In this document: piece by piece, positions 1,939 through 40,860 of the stretch | Position numbering within the stretch: the first letter of the stretch is position 1 | How the letters are laid out: each line of letters opens with the position of its first letter | DNA from: Promethearchaeota archaeon | Lineage (GTDB): Archaea > Asgardarchaeota > Lokiarchaeia > Sigyniarchaeales > SOKP01 | Assembly (NCBI GenBank): GCA_016840085.1 | Contig: JAEOTA010000085.1 | Coordinates: 17,441 to 81,440 of the forward strand | Direction of reading: 5' to 3' | DNA length: 64,000 bases | Translations under genes and position numbers: made by a program | Notes under the pieces: model-generated | What the model was told of the DNA's origin: nothing | What the model saw: the letters and a program-made list of their open reading frames with translations, nothing else | Database searches by the model: none

Positions 1939-2853
1939 ATGAATTATGTAGTTGGAAATTTGGAAGACCCCGTATTTAGACCTCCTTCTGAGTGGAATGC
2001 TTTATTGATTGCTGTAACCAATGGATGTACTCATAAATGCACATTCTGCTCTATGTATAGATCAAAAACATTCTCTATTCGTAAAGATATCGAAGAAATT
2101 AAAAAAGATATTAAAAGAGCGGGTGCTATTTATGGAAATCGAGTACATAAAATATTTTTCGAAGATGGAAATGCTTTTGTTGTTAAACCTGAGATTCTTA
2201 CTGAGTTAACCAAATATTGTTATAAAATTCATCCAAATCTCAAAAAAGTTAGTTCATATGCTCATGCCAAAGATATCATAAAAAAATCCGATGAGGATTT
2301 AAAAAGACTTGCAGAAAGCGGATTTACGATGGTTTACGTGGGCATTGAAAGTGGAGATGATGAGGTTCTAAAAGCTTGTAAAAAAGGAGCTACACAAGAT
2401 GAGTTTACTCTTGCGGCACAAAAATGCTATAAAGCAGGAATCTCTTGGTCGGGTATTTTTTTATTAGGACTCGCCGGAAATGATCCTGAAAAAAGCAGAA
2501 AACATGCAATTGAATCTGCTAAATTGATTAATAGAATGACTCCACCAACTCCGATTGATTGGTATATATCACCTTTAACATTAGGTATTACTCCCGGAAC
2601 TGAGTTGTGGACACAAAAATCAACAGGAGAATTCCAACCGTGTTCTAGTACTCAAATTTTAGAAGAATTATATACAATGATAGAATACACATCTGATGAT
2701 TTGCAGAAGTGTATATTTAACACAAACCACGCATCAAATTATTTAAGTTTGAAAGGAGAACTAGCGAGAGATAAGGAAAAATTTCTTAAAATTATAGAAA
2801 CAGGGATTAAAAACCCAAACATGCGTCGACCTGATTATCTTCGTAGCTTATAA
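1939..2853 (+). CDS. Radical SAM domain protein
   Basis: CxxxCxxC motif in VTNGCTHKCTFCSMY, followed by a TIM-barrel-like region (VYVGIESGDDEVL). Confidence 0.8.
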   Translation: MNYVVGNLEDPVFRPPSEWNALLIAVTNGCTHKCTFCSMYRSKTFSIRKDIEEIKKDIKRAGAIYGNRVHKIFFEDGNAFVVKPEILTELTKYCYKIHPNLKKVSSYAHAKDIIKKSDEDLKRLAESGFTMVYVGIESGDDEVLKACKKGATQDEFTLAAQKCYKAGISWSGIFLLGLAGNDPEKSRKHAIESAKLINRMTPPTPIDWYISPLTLGITPGTELWTQKSTGEFQPCSSTQILEELYTMIEYTSDDLQKCIFNTNHASNYLSLKGELARDKEKFLKIIETGIKNPNMRRPDYLRSL

Positions 2854-2909
2854 AAATTCATATTACTTATTCCTGAACCAGATATGGATTATTATTAATG
2901 AGGTAAATT

Positions 2910-3140
2910 ATGAACAATCCGAAATGTATAATGAAAGGTTGTAATAACAATAGCCGCCATAAAGATAAATTCCTTTGTCAAAAACATTGGAAAAATCTAA
3001 GGAGAACTTCATGTAAGCAGATAAAAAATGTTATTACTTTTTTGAATGAACTCGAACTTGAACCAAATTCTCAGAAAGGAATTTTAAGAGAGAATTTGAA
3101 AAGTGAATTAAATTCAGTTTTAAAGAGAAGAAGACGGTAA
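2910..3140 (+). CDS. Small basic Cys/His-rich protein (putative zinc finger)
   Basis: 76 aa. CIMKGC...FLCQKHW motif and a basic C-terminus (KRRRR). GAGGT Shine-Dalgarno-like motif about 7 nt upstream of the ATG. Confidence 0.45.
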   Translation: MNNPKCIMKGCNNNSRHKDKFLCQKHWKNLRRTSCKQIKNVITFLNELELEPNSQKGILRENLKSELNSVLKRRRR

Positions 3141-3364
3141 TTATTGAAGATTTAAAAATAAATTTTATAGGTTATAAAAAAAATCCTTAGAAGTGGGGAT
3201 ATACCATACTATTTGTTAAAAGAATATTCTGATGAAATAATAAAAAATAAAGAATTAATGATCGAGCAATAGCTAAAGCCTTGGTCCGACGCTCTGAACT
3301 ATTTTTCAAAAATTTAAAAAATAGAGAGGAATTAATAACAGTAATTTCAAAATTTTGTTAAAAT

Positions 3365-4443: not shown

Positions 4444-5616
4444 TTAATAACCAATTTTTTCTAACTTTCGAGCTGCTGCTTGAAGTGTTTCTTCTTTTTT
4501 ACAAAAACAAAATCTAGTTTGAAATTGCCCGTCTTGAGGATTTGCATAAAAAGAGGAGCCGGGTACAGTAACTATCCCAATATCTTTTACTAAATGAATA
4601 GCTAAATCCATAGATGTTTTAAGATCTTGTCTCTTCATGTATTCTTTACAATTTGTCATCATATAATATGCTCCCTTTGGTTTAATTGGTCTGAGATTTG
4701 TATTTTTCAAGGCATTAAAAAGAATATCTCTTGCCTTTTGATAGAAATCCTTTAATGATTGATAATATTCATCTTCTAAAGATAAAGCAAAAGCACCAGC
4801 TTCTTGAAGTGGAGCAGGTGCACCAACTGTCAAGAAATCGTGTACTTTTTTGATTTCATTTGTAATACGTTCACAAGCAATCGCCCATCCAACTCGCCAC
4901 CCCGTTAAGGAATAGGTTTTAGAGATTGAATTGATAGTTATTGAGTTATCTTGCATCCCAGATAAAGACGCAATTGAGATATGTTTCTTATTATCATATA
5001 ATATATGTTCATAAATTTCGTCTGTAATGGCGATTGCATTATAATCTAGACACAAATCTGCGATAAGTTTTAATTCTTCTTGATTATATACCTTACCAGT
5101 GGGATTATTTGGAGTATTTATAATTATTGCTTTTGTTTTTTTATTGAATAACATTTTTAAGCCTTCGGGTTCCAATGACCAACTGGGAGCTTGCAATTGA
5201 ATATAACGAGGTTTCGCGCCAGAAAGGAGACAATCTGGTCCATAATTTTCATAAAAAGGCTCGAAAATGATAATTTCATCTCCTGGATTTATAATTGCTT
5301 TCATAGCGGAAATCATCGCTTCTGTTGAACCACATGTTACAGTAATATTTTTATTAGGATCTACAAATTTAATTTTATTGTATTTTGAAATTTTATCTAC
5401 AATAGCCTTTCTTAATGATAAAGCCCCCCATGTAATTGAGTATTGGTTGATATCATCTTTAATTGCATTTATTGCCGCATTTTTTATTGATTCTGGTGCT
5501 GGAAAATCTGGAAATCCTTGTGCTAGATTAATACTTCTAGGGTGTTGATGTGCTATGCGTGTCATTTCACGTATAACTGATTCAGTAAAAGATTCTGTAA
5601 TTTTGGAAAGATCCAT
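4444..5616 (-). CDS. PLP-dependent aminotransferase, class I/II
   Basis: 390 aa. Lysine motif SISKTYSLTGWRVGW, NPTGKVY, C-terminal RFCFCK. Confidence 0.85.
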   Translation of the reverse strand: MDLSKITESFTESVIREMTRIAHQHPRSINLAQGFPDFPAPESIKNAAINAIKDDINQYSITWGALSLRKAIVDKISKYNKIKFVDPNKNITVTCGSTEAMISAMKAIINPGDEIIIFEPFYENYGPDCLLSGAKPRYIQLQAPSWSLEPEGLKMLFNKKTKAIIINTPNNPTGKVYNQEELKLIADLCLDYNAIAITDEIYEHILYDNKKHISIASLSGMQDNSITINSISKTYSLTGWRVGWAIACERITNEIKKVHDFLTVGAPAPLQEAGAFALSLEDEYYQSLKDFYQKARDILFNALKNTNLRPIKPKGAYYMMTNCKEYMKRQDLKTSMDLAIHLVKDIGIVTVPGSSFYANPQDGQFQTRFCFCKKEETLQAAARKLEKIGY

Positions 5617-34019: not shown

Positions 34020-35444
34020 CTAAAAGTTTAATCCCTTAAAGTAATTTACTGTTGTATAAATATCTTTACCACCTTTTCTAAGATAATCCATAGCTTCTTC
34101 GATACCTTCAATTGTTAAGTCAAACATAGGAATTATGCTAGAGATGATCTTTCTAGTCCATGGTGACCATTCAGGTCTTATAAGTTCAGGATTTAACCAT
34201 ACGATTCCATTTTTAAAATGATCCCCGAGCTCCTTGATATAATAGATTCCTGGTAATTCATTTCTATGATAATAATATATCGAACCATATTTTTCAGTTA
34301 ATTCCCAAGACGCCATTGCAGCGTCGCCCACTATGACAACTCTATATTTATTATCATATTTTCTTAGAAAATCGTTGAATTCAATAGCTTCATCAGGATT
34401 GCGTTTTGCATTGAAATAAATTGTTTCATAGATGCAATTATGGAAATAATAATGTTTAAAATCTTTCCAATGAGACATATTATTTGCTGCTGAGAAAAGT
34501 AAATTAACGAGATGGGCATAAGGAGTCATACTACCTCCAACGTCCATTAAAAGGAGGAGTTTTACATCATTTTTTCTACGTTTATCAAATACTATTTCAA
34601 TATCTCCACAGTTTTTAGCAGTTTTATCAATAGTTTCATCTAAATTTAACTCGTCTCTTTTTCCAATTTCTTCAAGCTTCTTGAGTTTTTTCAGAGCAAC
34701 TTTGATTTGTCGTGTATCTAAAACGATATCTTTGCGATAATCTTTAAAAATTCTTTTTTCTGCTATTTGAACTGCTGTCCGCATACCTGAAGAACCACCA
34801 ATTCTCATTCCCATAGGATTTTCTCCAGAATGCCCAAAAGGAGATGTGCCCTGCGTGCCAATCCAATGATCTCCAAAATTATGTTCTTCATCTTGTCTTT
34901 GCATTAAATCTTCGAATTGTTTTTGCATTTCTTCGAGATTAAAAAATTGGTTTAACATTTCTTGGGATATCCCATCAATTTCAGCAATACCAAGGTTTTT
35001 CTGCAACCATTTCAATATTTCCTCCTTAATATCCTCTGGTGCGTTTATTAAAAGCTTACCTTCAAGTTTATCTCTGTATTTCTCTAACAGTTCTTGAAGT
35101 AATTCTTGTATATCTACAACGTTGAGGTATTGTTGATATTCTCTTAATAATAATTGCAATCCTTCAATTAATTCTGGGAAAGTAATATCTTTCTCTAACC
35201 AATCCCAAATCTCGTGTTTAAGATCATCAGGGAATCTTATCATAGCATTTTTAAAGAAATTAGCAAAAGAAATGTCATAGATGTCAAAATGATGTTCATT
35301 TTTGCATAAAATAGATCTTGAAGTATAATAAAACTCGACCATGTTATGGATAAGCCCTTTATTTAACGCCTCTAATAGGGTAATATACTCTGTTATTGAT
35401 ACAGGAAGTCTTTCTTTAAGGTAATAAAAAAATTCGATAAACAT
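34020..35444 (-). CDS. vWA-domain protein (CoxE-like partner of a MoxR ATPase)
   Basis: 474 aa. MIDAS-like LLLLMDVGGSMTPY. A MoxR gene lies upstream on the same strand, separated by an insertion. Confidence 0.7.
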   Translation of the reverse strand: MFIEFFYYLKERLPVSITEYITLLEALNKGLIHNMVEFYYTSRSILCKNEHHFDIYDISFANFFKNAMIRFPDDLKHEIWDWLEKDITFPELIEGLQLLLREYQQYLNVVDIQELLQELLEKYRDKLEGKLLINAPEDIKEEILKWLQKNLGIAEIDGISQEMLNQFFNLEEMQKQFEDLMQRQDEEHNFGDHWIGTQGTSPFGHSGENPMGMRIGGSSGMRTAVQIAEKRIFKDYRKDIVLDTRQIKVALKKLKKLEEIGKRDELNLDETIDKTAKNCGDIEIVFDKRRKNDVKLLLLMDVGGSMTPYAHLVNLLFSAANNMSHWKDFKHYYFHNCIYETIYFNAKRNPDEAIEFNDFLRKYDNKYRVVIVGDAAMASWELTEKYGSIYYYHRNELPGIYYIKELGDHFKNGIVWLNPELIRPEWSPWTRKIISSIIPMFDLTIEGIEEAMDYLRKGGKDIYTTVNYFKGLNF

Positions 35445-35672
35445 TTAATTAAATCTTAATATCTTCAATGGTCGTTATTTAAATAGAGTTAACCATATAA
35501 TATTAGTTTTTGGTCAATATCAATACTTCTTTAATCTTCTTATAAAATAATTTGGTCTTATAGTAATAAACTAAGTATAAGAAAAAATTATTTATAAACT
35601 TGAAAACCCAAAAACTCATTGATATTATCTGGATATTTATTATTTTGAATTATTATTAATGGACGCATCGCT

Positions 35673-36770
35673 ATGAGAAAGATTTCATATCAAAATTGTA
35701 AAGAATTGGCAAAGCTAAGAGGGCTTGAATTAGTAATTTCTGAAAAAGAGTTTAATAAACTAATAAATAGAAAAAAATCAGCTCTAAGCAAAATTAAAAT
35801 TAAATGGAAATGTGACAAGGGACATCAATGGACTGCAACATATAACAATATAAAACAACATGAATCTGGTTGTCCTTATTGTTATGGTAATGTTGCAATA
35901 TCCTATCAGGTCTGTAAGGATTTAGGAAAACTAAAGGGATTTGAGTTAATAACCTCTGTAAATGAATTTAATATATTAATGAAAAATAGAACCAATGTTC
36001 CTAGTAAAGTTAAATTAAGATGGAGTTGTTTTTTAGGACATAAATGGAATGCAGCATATAACAATATAAAGCATACAGATACGGGATGTCCTTATTGTTA
36101 TGGTAATCTACCATTATCATATCAAAATTGCATAGAATTAGCAAAACTGAGAGGATTTGAAATATTAATATCTGAAAAGGAGTTTATAGGTTTAATGAAA
36201 CAGAGAACTACAGTTCCAAGTAAAGTAAAATTAAGATGGAAATGCGAAAAGTGTCATGAATGGTGTGCGATATATAATGATATACAACAAGGTAAGGGAT
36301 GCCCAGAATGTGCTGAAGGTAAATATGAGGAAAGCTGTCGTTGGTATTTTGAAAAAATTTTCAAAGAAAAATTTAATAAAATCAAACTATCCAAATTAAT
36401 ACCTTATTATAATGGTCAGATGCATTTAGATGGATTTGCTTTAGTAATGATTGCTGAAAATCAAATTAAGTTAGCTTTTGAATTTAATGGTATACAACAT
36501 GATGAATTCCCTAATTTCTTTCATAAAACATATCAAGACTTTTTAGAACAACAACGATATGATAATGAAAAGAAAGAATTATGTGAAAATAATGGAATAA
36601 TTCTTATTGTTTTTCCCCAGAAAATTGATTTAAAAATGAATCATCCTGAAATAATTCAAAAATTCATTATAGACGAATTAGAAAGAAAAACTGGTTTTAG
36701 ATTATCAAACATTCAACAATATAATCATCTGGTTGAATGGGCTAGTTGGAGAAGTTTAGATAATTTTTAG
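35673..36770 (+). CDS. Triple zinc-ribbon repeat protein with a C-terminal PD-(D/E)XK-like (Vsr/DUF559-like) nuclease domain
   Basis: Three ~72-aa repeats (...LAKLRGFEL...KLRWKCxxGHxWxAxYNNIKxxxxGCPYCYGN). C-terminus HLDGFALV...KLAFEFNGIQH...YDNEKKELCENNGIILIV. Confidence 0.6.
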   Translation: MRKISYQNCKELAKLRGLELVISEKEFNKLINRKKSALSKIKIKWKCDKGHQWTATYNNIKQHESGCPYCYGNVAISYQVCKDLGKLKGFELITSVNEFNILMKNRTNVPSKVKLRWSCFLGHKWNAAYNNIKHTDTGCPYCYGNLPLSYQNCIELAKLRGFEILISEKEFIGLMKQRTTVPSKVKLRWKCEKCHEWCAIYNDIQQGKGCPECAEGKYEESCRWYFEKIFKEKFNKIKLSKLIPYYNGQMHLDGFALVMIAENQIKLAFEFNGIQHDEFPNFFHKTYQDFLEQQRYDNEKKELCENNGIILIVFPQKIDLKMNHPEIIQKFIIDELERKTGFRLSNIQQYNHLVEWASWRSLDNF

Positions 36771-36781
36771 TAAATTTATTC

Positions 36782-36847
36782 TATCACATATTCTGTAATA
36801 CTAACCAGTAATCTTTCTTTTAAGTAATAATAAAATTCGATAAACAT
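36782..36847 (-). pseudogene. Remnant copy of the vWA gene 5' end, 15 nt downstream of the MoxR stop
   Basis: Reverse translation gives MFIEFYYYLKERLLVSITEYVIE*. The intact gene has MFIEFFYYLKERLPVSITEYITLL (35379..35444). Confidence 0.7.
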
Positions 36848-36862
36848 TCTTAAAAATCAAAA

Positions 36863-37714
36863 TTAGGTAGGGAATTTTATTTTATCAACAACTATTTCAA
36901 AATCTTTCTCTTTCTTTATCAAAACGCCAAGAAATGGAATTCCTTTCTTTAATTCATCTATTGTAATCCCGCTTTTTAGCAAAACTCCAATCCAATCAAG
37001 AAGTTCCGAAGTTGATGGCATTTTTCTTAATTTAGTAATCGCTCTTAAGGCATAAAAATGTTTTAAACATTGTTCTAATAAGTTCTGCTTTAGATTCGGA
37101 TAGTGTAATCTGCAAATTTCTGCCATGAAGCTTTTAGAGGGAAATTCAATCCAGTGGAATACACATCTTCTTAAAAATGCATCTGGGAGTTCTTTTTCAT
37201 TGTTAGATGTAATAATTACAATTGGTCTGTTTTTAGCTTTCACAAATTCTTTTGTTTCTTTTATATAAAATTCCATAACATCCAATTCCTGTAAAAGATC
37301 ATTAGGAAATTCAATATCAGCCTTATCAATTTCATCAATTAATAAAACTACCTGTTCATCAGAAACAAAAGATTCGCCTAATGGGCCCAGCATTATATAA
37401 TCGTGAATATTATCTACATCTCGATCATCACAGCCAAATCTACTATCATTTAATCTTTGAACTGTGTCATACATATAGCACCCATCAATACCCTCACTCG
37501 TGCTTTTAATATTCCAGATAATTAATTTTTTACCTAAACTTTCAGCTATTGCATGCGCGAGCATTGTTTTCCCTGTTCCTGGCTCTCCTTTAACTAATAA
37601 GGGTCTTGCTAATGCTATTGATACGTTAACTATGTTCCTTAGTTGAGGATCAGCAAGATATTTAACCCTATCAGTTTTTACGTCTCCTTGGAATTTATTA
37701 AATGTAGCATCCAT
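36863..37714 (-). CDS. MoxR/CoxD-like AAA+ ATPase (AAA_5)
   Basis: Walker A LVKGEPGTGKTMLAHAIA, Walker B VVLLIDEIDKAD. Confidence 0.85.
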   Translation of the reverse strand: MDATFNKFQGDVKTDRVKYLADPQLRNIVNVSIALARPLLVKGEPGTGKTMLAHAIAESLGKKLIIWNIKSTSEGIDGCYMYDTVQRLNDSRFGCDDRDVDNIHDYIMLGPLGESFVSDEQVVLLIDEIDKADIEFPNDLLQELDVMEFYIKETKEFVKAKNRPIVIITSNNEKELPDAFLRRCVFHWIEFPSKSFMAEICRLHYPNLKQNLLEQCLKHFYALRAITKLRKMPSTSELLDWIGVLLKSGITIDELKKGIPFLGVLIKKEKDFEIVVDKIKFPT

Positions 37715-38341: not shown

Positions 38342-39517
38342 TTAGTCTCTTTGACTTAACACTGTAACAGAACAAACACTAAACGCACCACCAAGATTGT
38401 GGGCTAATCCCGTTTTAGCGTCCGGAACTTGTCTTCCTTCTGCTCGTCCTTGAAGCTGTCTAGTAATCTCTTGGAGCATTCTACAACCAGTTGATCCTAT
38501 AGGATGTCCAAATGATTTTAAACCACCTGATGGATTTACTGCTGTTTCCCCATCCCAATTAAACGTACCATTCTTTAATTCTTCGGCAGCCATTCCACGA
38601 TCACAGAATTGTAAATCCTGACAATTTAATAATTCTGTAATGGTAAAACAATCATGAACCTCAGCAGCATCAATTTCTTTTCGTGGATCAGTTATATCTG
38701 CTTCTTTATACGCCATCTCAGCTGCTTTAACAGTGGCAGGGGCATGAGTAAAATCAAAATTAGGCCAATACCATGGAATGCTTGTATACACGGCAATTGA
38801 GTTTGCTTTTACAACTACATAATCGTCTGCATGAGCATAACTTTCTGCAAGTTCTGGGCTTGTTAAAATAAGTGCTGCTGCACCATCACTCATTGCACAA
38901 CAATCATAGCGACCAAGGGGATCTGCAATCATTGGAGCATTCAATGCTTGTTCAATTGAAATTTTCATTCTGAAATGAGCTTTTGGATGATAATATCCAT
39001 TATCATGATTCTTAACAGCAACTCGCGCTAAATCTTCTTTTGTCCATCCATATTCCTGAAAACTACGGGTAGCAAGTAAACAAAACATTGCAGGAGCTGA
39101 TGGGCGGGGATATACAGGATGACCAAAATATTTTGCGCTAGGAAGTCCTCTACCACCTTCATCCATTAGTTTTTCTACACCACAGGCCATAACAACATCA
39201 TACGCACCGGAAGCAACACCAAAACAAGCATTGCGGAAGGCATCCATACCTGAAGCACAATAATTCTCACATCTAGTAATTGGTTTTCCACCTAATCTTA
39301 ATGTATCTTCTAAAGTGGCGCCAGAAACACCTGTGAAGAAATAATAAACACCTAACCATGCTGCATCAATTTCATCTTTACTTACCCCTGCATCTTTGAA
39401 AGCACCATGGCATGCCTCACTTAAAAGGTCATACTGATTTTTATCCCAGAGTTCCCCATATTTCGTCGCGTCACATCCTATTATCGCAACCTGATCTTTT
39501 ATTCCATGTTTAACCAT
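38342..39517 (-). CDS. Archaeal-type acetyl-CoA acetyltransferase (thiolase), paralog 2
   Basis: YCASGMDAFRNA (active-site Cys), GHPIGSTGCRM, NLGGA. Start taken at ATG 39517 (the track starts at TTG 39526). About 80% aa identity to the neighbouring paralog. Confidence 0.85.
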   Translation of the reverse strand: MVKHGIKDQVAIIGCDATKYGELWDKNQYDLLSEACHGAFKDAGVSKDEIDAAWLGVYYFFTGVSGATLEDTLRLGGKPITRCENYCASGMDAFRNACFGVASGAYDVVMACGVEKLMDEGGRGLPSAKYFGHPVYPRPSAPAMFCLLATRSFQEYGWTKEDLARVAVKNHDNGYYHPKAHFRMKISIEQALNAPMIADPLGRYDCCAMSDGAAALILTSPELAESYAHADDYVVVKANSIAVYTSIPWYWPNFDFTHAPATVKAAEMAYKEADITDPRKEIDAAEVHDCFTITELLNCQDLQFCDRGMAAEELKNGTFNWDGETAVNPSGGLKSFGHPIGSTGCRMLQEITRQLQGRAEGRQVPDAKTGLAHNLGGAFSVCSVTVLSQRD

Positions 39518-39672
39518 AATACACAATCCAATAGTAATTTCTACTAAAATAATTAAGTTTTCTATTAAAAATTAATTGATTATATTAGTAAGAGTTTTTT
39601 AAATTTCCTAATATTTACACACAGTCTTAAAAAAAAGAAAAAGAAAAAAATAAGGATTTTTGTTATAAAATC

Positions 39673-40860
39673 TTAATCTCTTTGACCTAAAATAGTTACA
39701 GAGCACACACTATATGCTCCACCGAGATTGTGGCATAAACCTAATTTAGCGTCTGGAACTTGTCTTCCTTCTGCACGTCCTTGAAGTTGTTTAGTAATTT
39801 CTGTTAACATTCGACAACCTGTAGATCCTATTGGATGACCAAATGATTTCAGACCACCTGATGGATTTGTTGCTGTTTCACTATCCCAATTGAAGGTTCC
39901 ATTCTTTAATTCCTCGGCAGCCATTCCACGATCACAGAATTTCAAATCCTGACAATTAATTAATTCTGTAATTGTAAAACAGTCATGAATCTCAGCACAA
40001 TCAATTTCTTTTCGTGGATCAGTTATATCTGCTTCTTTATACGCCATCTCAGCTGCTTTAACAGTAGCAGGAAAGCTTGTAAAGTCAGCTCCAGGCCCAT
40101 TAGAAGGCACATACCATGGGGTATTAGTTCTGCATGAAAGAGCATTTGCTTTTACTAATATATAATCATCAGCATGAGCATAACTCTCTGCAAGTTCTGG
40201 TGTAGTCAATATTAGAGCTGCAGCGCCATCTGACATGGCACAGCAATCAAATCGTCCAAGAGGATCAGCAATCATAGGTGCATTCATTGCTTGTTCAATT
40301 GATATTTTTCTTCTAAAGTGAGCTTTTGGATGATAAGAACCGTTATCATGATTTTTCACTGCAACTCGAGCCAGATCTTCTTTTGTCCACCCAAATTCAT
40401 GAAAACTGCGGGTAGCAGCCATAGAGAACATTGCAGGAGCGGATGGGAGAGGTAATACAGGATGTCCGAAAATTTTGAATCCTGGAAGTCCACTTGACCC
40501 TTCATCCATTAGTTTTTCTACACCACAGGCCATAACAACATCATACACACCCGAAGCAATAGCAAAACAAGCATTTCGAAAGGCATCCATTCCTGAAGCA
40601 CAATAATTTTCTGTTCTCGTAATTGGTATTCCATCTAATCTTAACATATCCTCAATTGTAGCACCAGACATTCCTGTGAAATAATAATATATCCCCGCCC
40701 ATGCTGCTTCAATCTCATCTTTTTTAATGCCAGCATCTTTGTAAGCATCTCGAGCTGCTTCAAAAAGTAAATCATACTGACTTTTATCCCAGAGTTCTCC
40801 ATATTTTGTCATATCACAACCAATTATAGCAACTCTATCTCTTATCCCTTTAGTTACCAT
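39673..40860 (-). CDS. Archaeal-type acetyl-CoA acetyltransferase (thiolase), paralog 1
   Basis: Same motifs as paralog 2. GGAGGT Shine-Dalgarno 7-8 nt upstream. 16 nt downstream of the HMGCS-DUF35 gene. Confidence 0.85.
   Translation of the reverse strand: MVTKGIRDRVAIIGCDMTKYGELWDKSQYDLLFEAARDAYKDAGIKKDEIEAAWAGIYYYFTGMSGATIEDMLRLDGIPITRTENYCASGMDAFRNACFAIASGVYDVVMACGVEKLMDEGSSGLPGFKIFGHPVLPLPSAPAMFSMAATRSFHEFGWTKEDLARVAVKNHDNGSYHPKAHFRRKISIEQAMNAPMIADPLGRFDCCAMSDGAAALILTTPELAESYAHADDYILVKANALSCRTNTPWYVPSNGPGADFTSFPATVKAAEMAYKEADITDPRKEIDCAEIHDCFTITELINCQDLKFCDRGMAAEELKNGTFNWDSETATNPSGGLKSFGHPIGSTGCRMLTEITKQLQGRAEGRQVPDAKLGLCHNLGGAYSVCSVTILGQRD

Follow-up and report, generated by a model that had tools for sequence, protein, structure and literature searches.

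Architecture of the MoxR–vWA locus

We analysed a stretch of 64,000 nucleotides (nt) from a Promethearchaeota archaeon (contig JAEOTA010000085.1, positions 17,441 to 81,440; hereafter the window), in which a gene for a MoxR-like AAA+ ATPase and a gene of the VWA_CoxE type (hereafter vWA) are separated by a nuclease-like gene on the opposite strand. The window is AT-rich, with a G+C content of about 30%, and its nearest relatives are metagenome-assembled genomes of Promethearchaeota (Lokiarchaeia-like Asgard archaea). A preliminary description had proposed a nuclease gene inserted between MoxR and vWA, and its coordinates hold: the MoxR stop codon is followed after 15 nt by a decayed vWA start, the real vWA start lies 1403 nt further on, and a single opposite-strand gene stands between the two. 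Related loci are cited by number (L001 and so on); vWA loci with the nuclease are called filled and those without it empty, the decayed vWA start is called the stub, and the segment from the stub to the host-type part of vWA is called the cassette. The features are listed from MoxR to the end of vWA.

36863–37714, minus strand: MoxR-like AAA+ ATPase gene, 283 amino acids (aa) (Pfam AAA, 1e-12; AAA_5, 1.6e-10)
36848–36862, minus strand: native MoxR–vWA spacer, 15 nt, which aligns with the spacer of the empty-site relative L057
36776–36847, minus strand: stub, the displaced native vWA 5' end, 23 codons and a stop, MFIEFYYYLKERLLVSITEYVIE*
36771–36783, no strand: left junction and cassette trailer, from the stub to the nuclease stop codon, placed by junction alignment
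35673–36770, plus strand: nuclease gene, 365 aa, the sole open reading frame (ORF) between stub and vWA and opposite to them in strand
35445–35672, no strand: divergent intergenic region carried by the cassette, 85–95% identical among filled loci
35355–35444, minus strand: cassette-type, imported first ~90 nt of the working vWA gene, near-identical in all filled loci
34020–35354, minus strand: host-derived rest of the vWA_CoxE gene, which has 474 aa in total (Pfam VWA_CoxE, 1.4e-7)

The ATPase also matched the NCBIfam model MadB_ATPase (4.7e-31), under that model's cut-off. The intact vWA_CoxE gene (34020–35444, minus strand) opens with MFIEFFYYLKERLPVSITEYITL, and its ATG lies 1403 nt from that of the stub. 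The two starts are part of a direct repeat of 76 nt with 74% identity (35385–35460 and 36788–36863). Counted from the ATG, 52 of 72 nt and 18 of 23 aa are identical, and the blastn match has an E value of 3.5e-10, against 0.049 for the next-best chance match within the window. The first 22 residues, previously described as the same in both copies, are thus similar but differ at positions 6, 14, 21, and 22. A stub is present at the equivalent place in L001/L002, L005/L006, L015, and L045. Its recurrence in several relatives shows that it is neither a chance match nor a local assembly error.

The cassette is not marked by its G+C content within the window, and a repeat search of the window found no terminal inverted repeats at it. 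Its 71-nt repeats are 72% identical and unlike in origin, and there is no short identical target-site duplication. We rejected a transposon or insertion sequence, given that there is no transposase, that the nuclease is the only gene, and that terminal inverted repeats are lacking. A TATA-like TTTAAATA is located at 35476–35483 (minus strand), 32–39 nt before the working vWA ATG, and the segment 35445–35510 resembles the region upstream of vWA at many nuclease-free loci. The intergenic region 35445–35672 therefore probably carries a promoter, of which the 65 nt 5' of the working ATG would be a copy of the usual vWA promoter and not a novel one.

Filled and empty alleles of vWA

The comparison covered about 60 related Promethearchaeota loci, and the scan of species-representative genomes with vWA comprised 53 loci. 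The nuclease was present at about six of about 50 Promethearchaeota vWA loci and absent from about 45 of about 50 orthologous ones. All close homologues of the nuclease (61–86% identity) stand head-to-head with a vWA orthologue, on the strand opposite to MoxR and vWA, and in L001 and L045 there is no adjacent MoxR. The neighbour upstream of the filled site is MoxR, a DsrE-like gene, or a gene for a PAS-domain protein. A metagenome scan with the nuclease retrieved one short contig only (L066), which has the same arrangement. The uninterrupted MoxR–vWA pair, for which the preliminary description had suggested looking, was found in L057, where vWA begins 28 nt after the ATPase gene, as it does in bacteria. 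MoxR is located directly 5' of vWA in L057, L049, L041, and the bacterial examples L053–L058, and a tight MoxR–vWA operon is the ancestral state. As to the proposed uncoupling of vWA from MoxR by a promoter inside the insert, the promoter appears to be a copy of the normal one, and many relatives already have vWA apart from MoxR. In L028 (632–2700 and 6001–7422), a shorter vWA paralogue (53% identity, about 400 aa) directly follows MoxR, and the 474-aa vWA is 3.3 kb downstream. Short-form vWA genes (L041–L043, 60–62% identity) may be those still coupled to MoxR.

Two pairs of loci define the left edge of the insertion. The filled L015 and the empty L057 and L039 derive from near-identical hosts; L015 and L057 are practically identical over the MoxR 3' end, the spacer, and vWA positions +1 to +71, and split exactly after ATGACCYTAAT. 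The filled L001, whose vWA stands behind a DsrE-like gene and a promoter region of 95 nt, and its empty counterpart L025 diverge at the same nucleotide. The point of divergence, directly after ATGACNTTAAT, corresponds to codon 24 of vWA in two different upstream contexts. A precise insertion at a single site distinguishes filled from empty alleles, as in homing elements. The remaining copies of the segment occupy this exact site too, but the genes upstream differ from host to host. The insertion previously placed between MoxR and vWA is indeed at that junction but lies inside the vWA coding sequence. The left junction is sharp in L001, L005, and L015 and blurred by a small deletion in the window, where the likeness of the stub to uninterrupted vWA alleles reaches about 36784. 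The adjoining trailer is the most variable part of the cassette (59–65 of 88 positions identical).

On the right side, the working vWA gene of filled loci differs from that of empty relatives by 20–26 mismatches in the first 90 nt and then mostly by 0–4 per 30 nt in the two closest host pairs. Counted per 30 nt from the ATG, mismatches number 4, 9, and 8 and then mostly 0–3 between L015 and L039, and 6, 10, and 10 and then mostly 1–5 between L001 and L025. This drop places the right boundary of the foreign tract at about +90 in these two pairs. The more diverged pair of the window and L007 (5, 9, and 9 mismatches, then fewer) agrees, with a less sharp boundary. About 20 nt of converted sequence (+72 to +90) thus extend past the insertion junction.

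Origin and recoding of the two vWA starts

The stub is 86–89% identical to the vWA starts of the nuclease-free L057, L039, L007, and L012. The working first ~90 nt of vWA are nearly identical at every filled locus, and the stubs resemble the nearest nuclease-free relatives of each host. These similarities show that the stub is the native start of the host, and that the working start together with its upstream DNA is foreign and came with the cassette. This reverses the earlier notion that the insertion duplicated the vWA start, in that the stub is the original and the working start (~90 nt plus upstream DNA) the import. Around the junction, the cassette-type start reads GAGTATATTACCCTATTAGAGGCG (aa EYITLLEA) and host-type alleles read GAATATATGACCTTAATGGAAGC. 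Only M21I and M24L alter the protein; all other changes are silent. Dense recoding at a junction with the protein nearly kept is typical of immunity to a site-specific nuclease, and we propose that the recoded stretch GAGTATATTACCCTATTAGAGGCG would resist cleavage.

Structure and affiliation of the nuclease

The preliminary description had assigned the nuclease to zinc-ribbon and PD-(D/E)XK-like proteins. The N-terminal part consists of three modules of about 72 aa, each with a helical part and a DUF4379 treble-clef zinc finger; Pfam DUF4379 was matched in three stretches (2.1e-22), the cysteine ligands are conserved in every module, and at the DNA level the modules form three copies of a 216-nt period (35685–36290, repeat family D1). 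The number of modules varies, with about two in L005/L006 (294 aa), three in the window, L001, L015, and L045 (365–366 aa), and six in L003/L004 (576 aa), which could change target recognition or reflect decay. The C-terminal part is a Vsr/EDxHD-like PD-(D/E)XK domain of about 130 aa (aa ~215–340, about 36315–36692). A profile built from 25 homologous C-domains and searched against the PDB matched 3R3P, entered as 'Mobile intron protein', with an E value of 2.5e-6, and the DUF559-like endonuclease 3HRL with 5e-3; 3R3P we take to be the catalytic domain of I-Bth0305I. Residues D253, E270, and D297 are invariant among the C-domains, and E219, G273, and K300 nearly so. Matches in PHROG were 'HNH endonuclease' (1.7e-29), 'homing endonuclease' (1.4e-5), and 'intron encoded nuclease' (6e-4).

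AlphaFold2 models had a pLDDT of 90.6 for the full-length nuclease and 88.8 for the C-domain, whose secondary-structure elements follow the order alpha-beta-beta-beta-alpha-beta. Foldseek returned 69 viral structural matches at E <= 1e-3 with TM scores of 0.6–0.7, mostly giant-virus proteins that bear the annotation 'restriction endonuclease' or 'treble clef zinc finger'; a Bacillus phage protein annotated as 'homing endonuclease' was also among them. NCBIfam holds no family for the nuclease, a phmmer search of the full protein against the PDB gave noise only, and an exact-sequence look-up of the window nuclease found no record. Both its N-terminal modules and its C-terminal domain are those predicted for the group of homing endonucleases that combine CapR/DUF4379 with an EDxHD/Vsr-like domain. 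The ratio of nonsynonymous to synonymous substitution rates (dN/dS) of 0.17–0.36 indicates that the gene is under purifying selection.

Conflict between cassette and host histories

Cassette and host genes differ strongly in their divergence. The cassette is 90–96% identical at the nucleotide level between the window and L001/L045, where the vWA body is 69–82% identical; in particular, the vWA body at 34020–35354 shares only 69–82% with L001, L015, and L045 (synonymous divergence, dS, 2.4–3.3). For MoxR, the window and L015 share about 80% of the nucleotides. The nuclease C-domain has a dS of 0.40–0.51 where that of vWA is 2.4–3.3, and overall the nuclease dS is 0.13–0.5 where the adjacent vWA ranges from 1.7 to saturated; between L005 and L015, the nuclease dS is 0.127 and vWA is saturated. 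A nuclease dS far below that of vWA between lineages implies that the cassette moved between them. The order is reversed between the window and L005, the two closest hosts, in which the nuclease dS of 0.40 exceeds the vWA dS of 0.255, and the L005 nuclease has just two zinc-finger modules. The history of the cassette thus conflicts with that of its hosts in both directions, with co-conversion of the flank.

These values bear directly on the alternative of one ancient insertion that was inherited vertically and lost in most lineages, its nuclease now being a resident gene and possibly a MoxR–vWA effector. The nuclease is indeed found only beside vWA, in at least six related lineages, and MoxR–vWA pairs are known to partner with varied effectors. 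Vertical descent does not fit a nuclease dS five to eight times below that of the adjacent vWA between lineages and above it between the two closest hosts, nor stubs whose host type changes from lineage to lineage. Filled loci vary in the gene that lies upstream (MoxR, DsrE-like, or PAS-domain protein), the opposite-strand nuclease is missing from the ~45 orthologous loci mentioned above, and paralogues of it sit at unrelated genes. We therefore consider this alternative very improbable. The effector role as such was rejected on account of the patchy distribution of the nuclease, its location on the opposite strand and lack of co-orientation, and the absence of an adjacent MoxR at some loci.

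A second alternative, that stub or cassette junctions are chimeric joins produced by assembly or binning, could be argued from two records: in L002, which may be chimeric, the cassette is joined at vWA codon 57 to a DUF362 gene, and L023 is labelled as a bacterial bin. The window, L001, L005/L006, L015, L045, and L066 all have the same order of stub, nuclease, and vWA with the same junction, although their assemblies are independent and stem from different studies and samples, which leaves an artefact barely credible. From vWA codon 58 onwards, across the nuclease, stub, and DsrE-like gene, L002 and L001 share 99.8% identity; at 1199–1378 the vWA of L002 ends at codon 57 against the start of the DUF362 gene, and this breakpoint, about 80 nt past the imported tract, is either a real rearrangement or an assembly chimera.

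Proposed homing mechanism

We consider it likely, with appreciable room for doubt, that the segment from about 36783 to about 35355 (~1.43 kb) is a mobile cassette of the free-standing homing-endonuclease type in a Promethearchaeota chromosome. The alleles and the discordant history described above also agree with the preliminary description of a nuclease cassette at the MoxR–vWA junction with the nuclease as its probable homing function. The cassette carries the nuclease, the divergent region with its probable promoter, and a recoded copy of the first ~30 vWA codons. The nuclease would cut a vWA allele that lacks the cassette, at about +60 to +95 within the coding sequence. This position is suggested by the left junction and the short right tract, both of which are constant. 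A copy that bears the cassette would serve as the template for repair of the break. At +1 to +71 the recipient would pair with the donor stub and so keep its own sequence there, its gene body from about +91 would pair with the donor vWA, and everything between would be copied in. The native start, severed after codon 24, would be left as a stub beside MoxR or another upstream gene, and vWA would then depend on the promoter and start that were imported. Recoding at the junction (M21I, M24L, and silent changes) would keep the filled allele from being cut again, and the 71-nt direct repeats would permit precise loss of the cassette, leaving a chimeric and presumably immune start. That the nuclease makes the initiating cut, and where, we infer from the boundaries of the tract. 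Single-crossover (Campbell-type) integration of a circle was discarded; it predicts hybrid stubs, but pure host-type sequence extends to +71 in the stubs, and cassette-type sequence to +90 in the working copy.

Several observations weigh against homing. The left homology arm is only 71 nt long and about 80% identical between lineages, which is short for recombination, and the cassette dS of 0.13–0.9 means that no very recent transfers are involved. The sequences compared all come from metagenome assemblies, and the predicted cut site is deduced solely from tract boundaries. L003/L004 have a diverged, longer nuclease beside vWA, with four extra genes before MoxR, and no stub was detected beside this nuclease. 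Foldseek searches of the full-length and C-domain models against the PDB gave no match at E <= 1e-3; the best, a FASTKD4 RAP module, had an E value of 0.09, and the other top matches were PD-(D/E)XK enzymes, none of them significant. A Pfam search of the C-domain alone found no match either. Furthermore, comparable structures occur with other cargo. A pair of HEPN-like (130 aa) and nucleotidyltransferase-like (104 aa) genes is located between vWA and a copy of its 3' end in L045/L032 (7425–8520). Copies of the last ~65–75 vWA codons downstream of the intact gene are found in L045, L032, L009 (8190–8414), and L013 (11032–11193), and other genes intervene elsewhere. L019 (4779–5346) has a fragment of the MoxR C-terminus (aa 238–283), 16 nt, and a 137-codon ORF of the vWA 5' end, upstream of a DsrE-like gene and the intact vWA; the intact MoxR is 1.8 kb further up. 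Gene-end duplications around nuclease-free cargo mean that architecture alone does not prove nuclease-driven mobility. The L019 stub is older and larger, at the same junction and with different cargo.

These insertions are also the best argument for a third alternative, in which the cassette moves between lineages by ordinary homologous recombination and the nuclease is passive cargo, a restriction-like or defence gene that does not cut vWA. The HEPN/nucleotidyltransferase pair and the DsrE-like gene adjoin vWA with similar gene-end duplications, so that such insertions arise without this nuclease; a toxin–antitoxin-like pair occupies the DsrE–vWA spacer of L034/L023; giant-virus homologues are annotated simply as restriction endonucleases; and cutting of vWA is a prediction made from sequence. 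Random crossovers along a 1.4-kb gene would not yield a right boundary at about +90 in separate host backgrounds together with an identical left junction; the short right tract would be predicted by conversion that starts from a cut. The imported start is densely recoded exactly at the junction with the protein nearly preserved, and the nuclease architecture is the one described for homing endonucleases. On balance, passive transfer seems unlikely to us, though it is the most serious of the alternatives, and homing remains our preferred explanation.

In L034 (5160–5809) and L023 (1916–2565), a PIN-like ORF of 143 aa and an overlapping ORF of 76 aa lie on the opposite strand between the DsrE-like gene and vWA, and the region upstream of vWA appears to be a general insertion hotspot. 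L023 (DATKTW010000077.1) is labelled 'Candidatus Nanopelagicaceae bacterium' and carries the Promethearchaeota-type order of MoxR, DsrE-like, toxin–antitoxin-like, and vWA genes; its vWA is 79% identical in aa sequence to that of the window, and the label is probably a binning error in the public record.

Nuclease-free alleles with chimeric starts

L029 is 97.7% identical to L001 over 5.8 kb and has no nuclease. Host-type sequence covers positions -70 to -1 of L029 and L032 (7–10 of 68 mismatches to host type, 28–30 of 70 to cassette type) and the first ~23 nt of their vWA genes, and cassette-type sequence covers +24 to +95 (0–2 mismatches per segment); in L036 the switch from host to cassette type is near +40. 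The three nuclease-free chimeric starts of L029, L032, and L036 are scars of the cassette, consistent with its loss by recombination between the 71-nt repeats; alternatively, break repair may have converted the target without copying the nuclease. At 4858–5177, L039 has a vWA 5' stub (-38 to about +60) directly followed by an opposite-strand, cysteine-rich ORF of 67 aa, and its working vWA start is host-type. This region holds no recognisable nuclease and may be a degenerate or a different cassette.

Paralogues and neighbouring genes

A paralogue of the nuclease (P0008, 386 aa, 40% identity; L060 963–3646 and L061) is flanked on one side by the 3' end of a ClpB-like gene and on the other by a decayed copy of the last ~150 ClpB codons. 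The duplicates (990–1437 and 2734–3177) are 71% identical at the nucleotide level, and in L061 the duplicate is split into two ORFs. The ClpB case is a mirror image of the vWA arrangement, at the 3' end of the gene. Another nuclease paralogue adjoins ClpB without a stub, and searches for flank duplications around the paralogues in L059, L062, L063/L064, and L065 found none.

Just past MoxR and an MscL-like gene, the window contains tandem thiolase-like paralogues (38342–39526 and 39673–40860). The single thiolase stretch of L005 matches one of them at 95% nucleotide identity and the other at 79%. In L005, three additional genes, one of them a radical SAM gene, separate MoxR from MscL.

Comparison with known mobile elements

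Replacement of a gene end by a foreign copy is known from fungal mitochondria, where mobile ORFs (mORFs) form gene hybrids in atp6 of Allomyces macrogynus, atp6, atp9, cox2, and nad3 of Glomus, atp9 of Rhizopus, and cox2 of Mortierella (PMC3630166), and where partial duplications of atp6 and cob occur (PMC6279837). In both settings, an endonuclease gene moves together with a foreign version of one end of the gene that it targets. The foreign version takes the place of the native end, which stays nearby as an unexpressed or decaying duplicate, and this native duplicate is closer to close relatives than the inserted copy is. Protein sequence is kept despite nucleotide divergence, and horizontal transfer is inferred for both. 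The two differ in that the host is an archaeal chromosome and not a mitochondrion, the enzyme is of the DUF4379 plus Vsr/EDxHD-like type as opposed to LAGLIDADG or GIY-YIG, and the nuclease gene is on the opposite strand, whereas mORFs are on the same strand and often in phase with the host gene. Moreover, mORFs replace the C-terminus, whereas at vWA the 5' end and promoter are replaced, which would rewire transcription, and the MoxR–vWA operon is broken; a C-terminal version like that of fungal mORFs exists for the ClpB paralogue (L060/L061).

The group of homing endonucleases that join CapR/DUF4379/DUF723 to an EDxHD/Vsr-like domain has been described from group II and group I introns of phages (PMC12350094). 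The window nuclease shares with this group three to five zinc-finger modules of ~60–70 aa followed by a Vsr-like nuclease domain of ~100 aa, and with EDxHD/Vsr-like homing endonucleases the C-domain profile match to 3R3P and the conserved acidic residues. It differs in being free-standing, in residing in an archaeal chromosome and not in a phage, and in replacing a gene end instead of relying on splicing. It resides in neither an intron nor an intein: the nuclease gene stands apart on the opposite strand, where it has its own start and stop, and the reading frame of vWA is unbroken.

Free-standing homing endonucleases are known from T-even phages and cyanophages, where their spread is called 'intronless homing'. 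As in these systems, a stand-alone nuclease is encoded beside its target, spread would proceed by break repair with co-conversion, and the carrier's target would be protected by sequence differences. The phage elements sit between genes and have neither a replacement gene end nor a stub, whereas the cassette is inserted inside a coding sequence. Integrative elements, such as those that integrate into tRNA genes, also bring along a copy of their target gene's end; this copy restores the target, and the part that it displaces persists as a partial copy at the other junction. Unlike these, the cassette has no integrase or recombinase, its repeats are only 72% identical and of differing origin, and it consists of about 1.4 kb with a single gene. 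Archaeal homing endonucleases are known mainly from rRNA introns and inteins. We found no report in the literature of such an element in Asgard archaea, and the replacement of a 5' end plus promoter in an archaeal chromosome appears to be new, with the fungal mitochondrial mORF as the closest analogue.

Implications for Asgard archaea and the nuclease family

Extending the argument beyond vWA, Asgard archaea may host unrecognised free-standing homing cassettes that enter the coding sequences of chromosomal genes, replace gene ends with a recoded, cleavage-immune copy, and need no intron or intein, a generalisation that we advance tentatively and place a little below an even chance. If it is true, such elements would have a third general means of sparing their host, namely replacement of a gene end (the 5' end and promoter in vWA, the 3' end in ClpB), and the cassettes would rewire operons, as in the uncoupling of vWA from MoxR, and seed rearrangements at their targets. 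The vWA locus appears to capture a whole life cycle, with empty, filled, and degenerating sites and sites from which the cassette was lost with an immune scar. With the candidate recognition sequence narrowed to about 30 bp, a very large uncharacterised family of DUF4379 plus Vsr-like proteins, abundant in giant viruses and phages, becomes directly testable. Gene-end replacement, so far documented for C-termini in fungal mitochondria, would be extended to the 5' end and promoter of a gene in a prokaryotic chromosome, and if the nuclease is active, a free-standing homing endonuclease would add to the ways in which genes flow and operons are rewired in the Asgard archaea, the lineage closest to eukaryotes.

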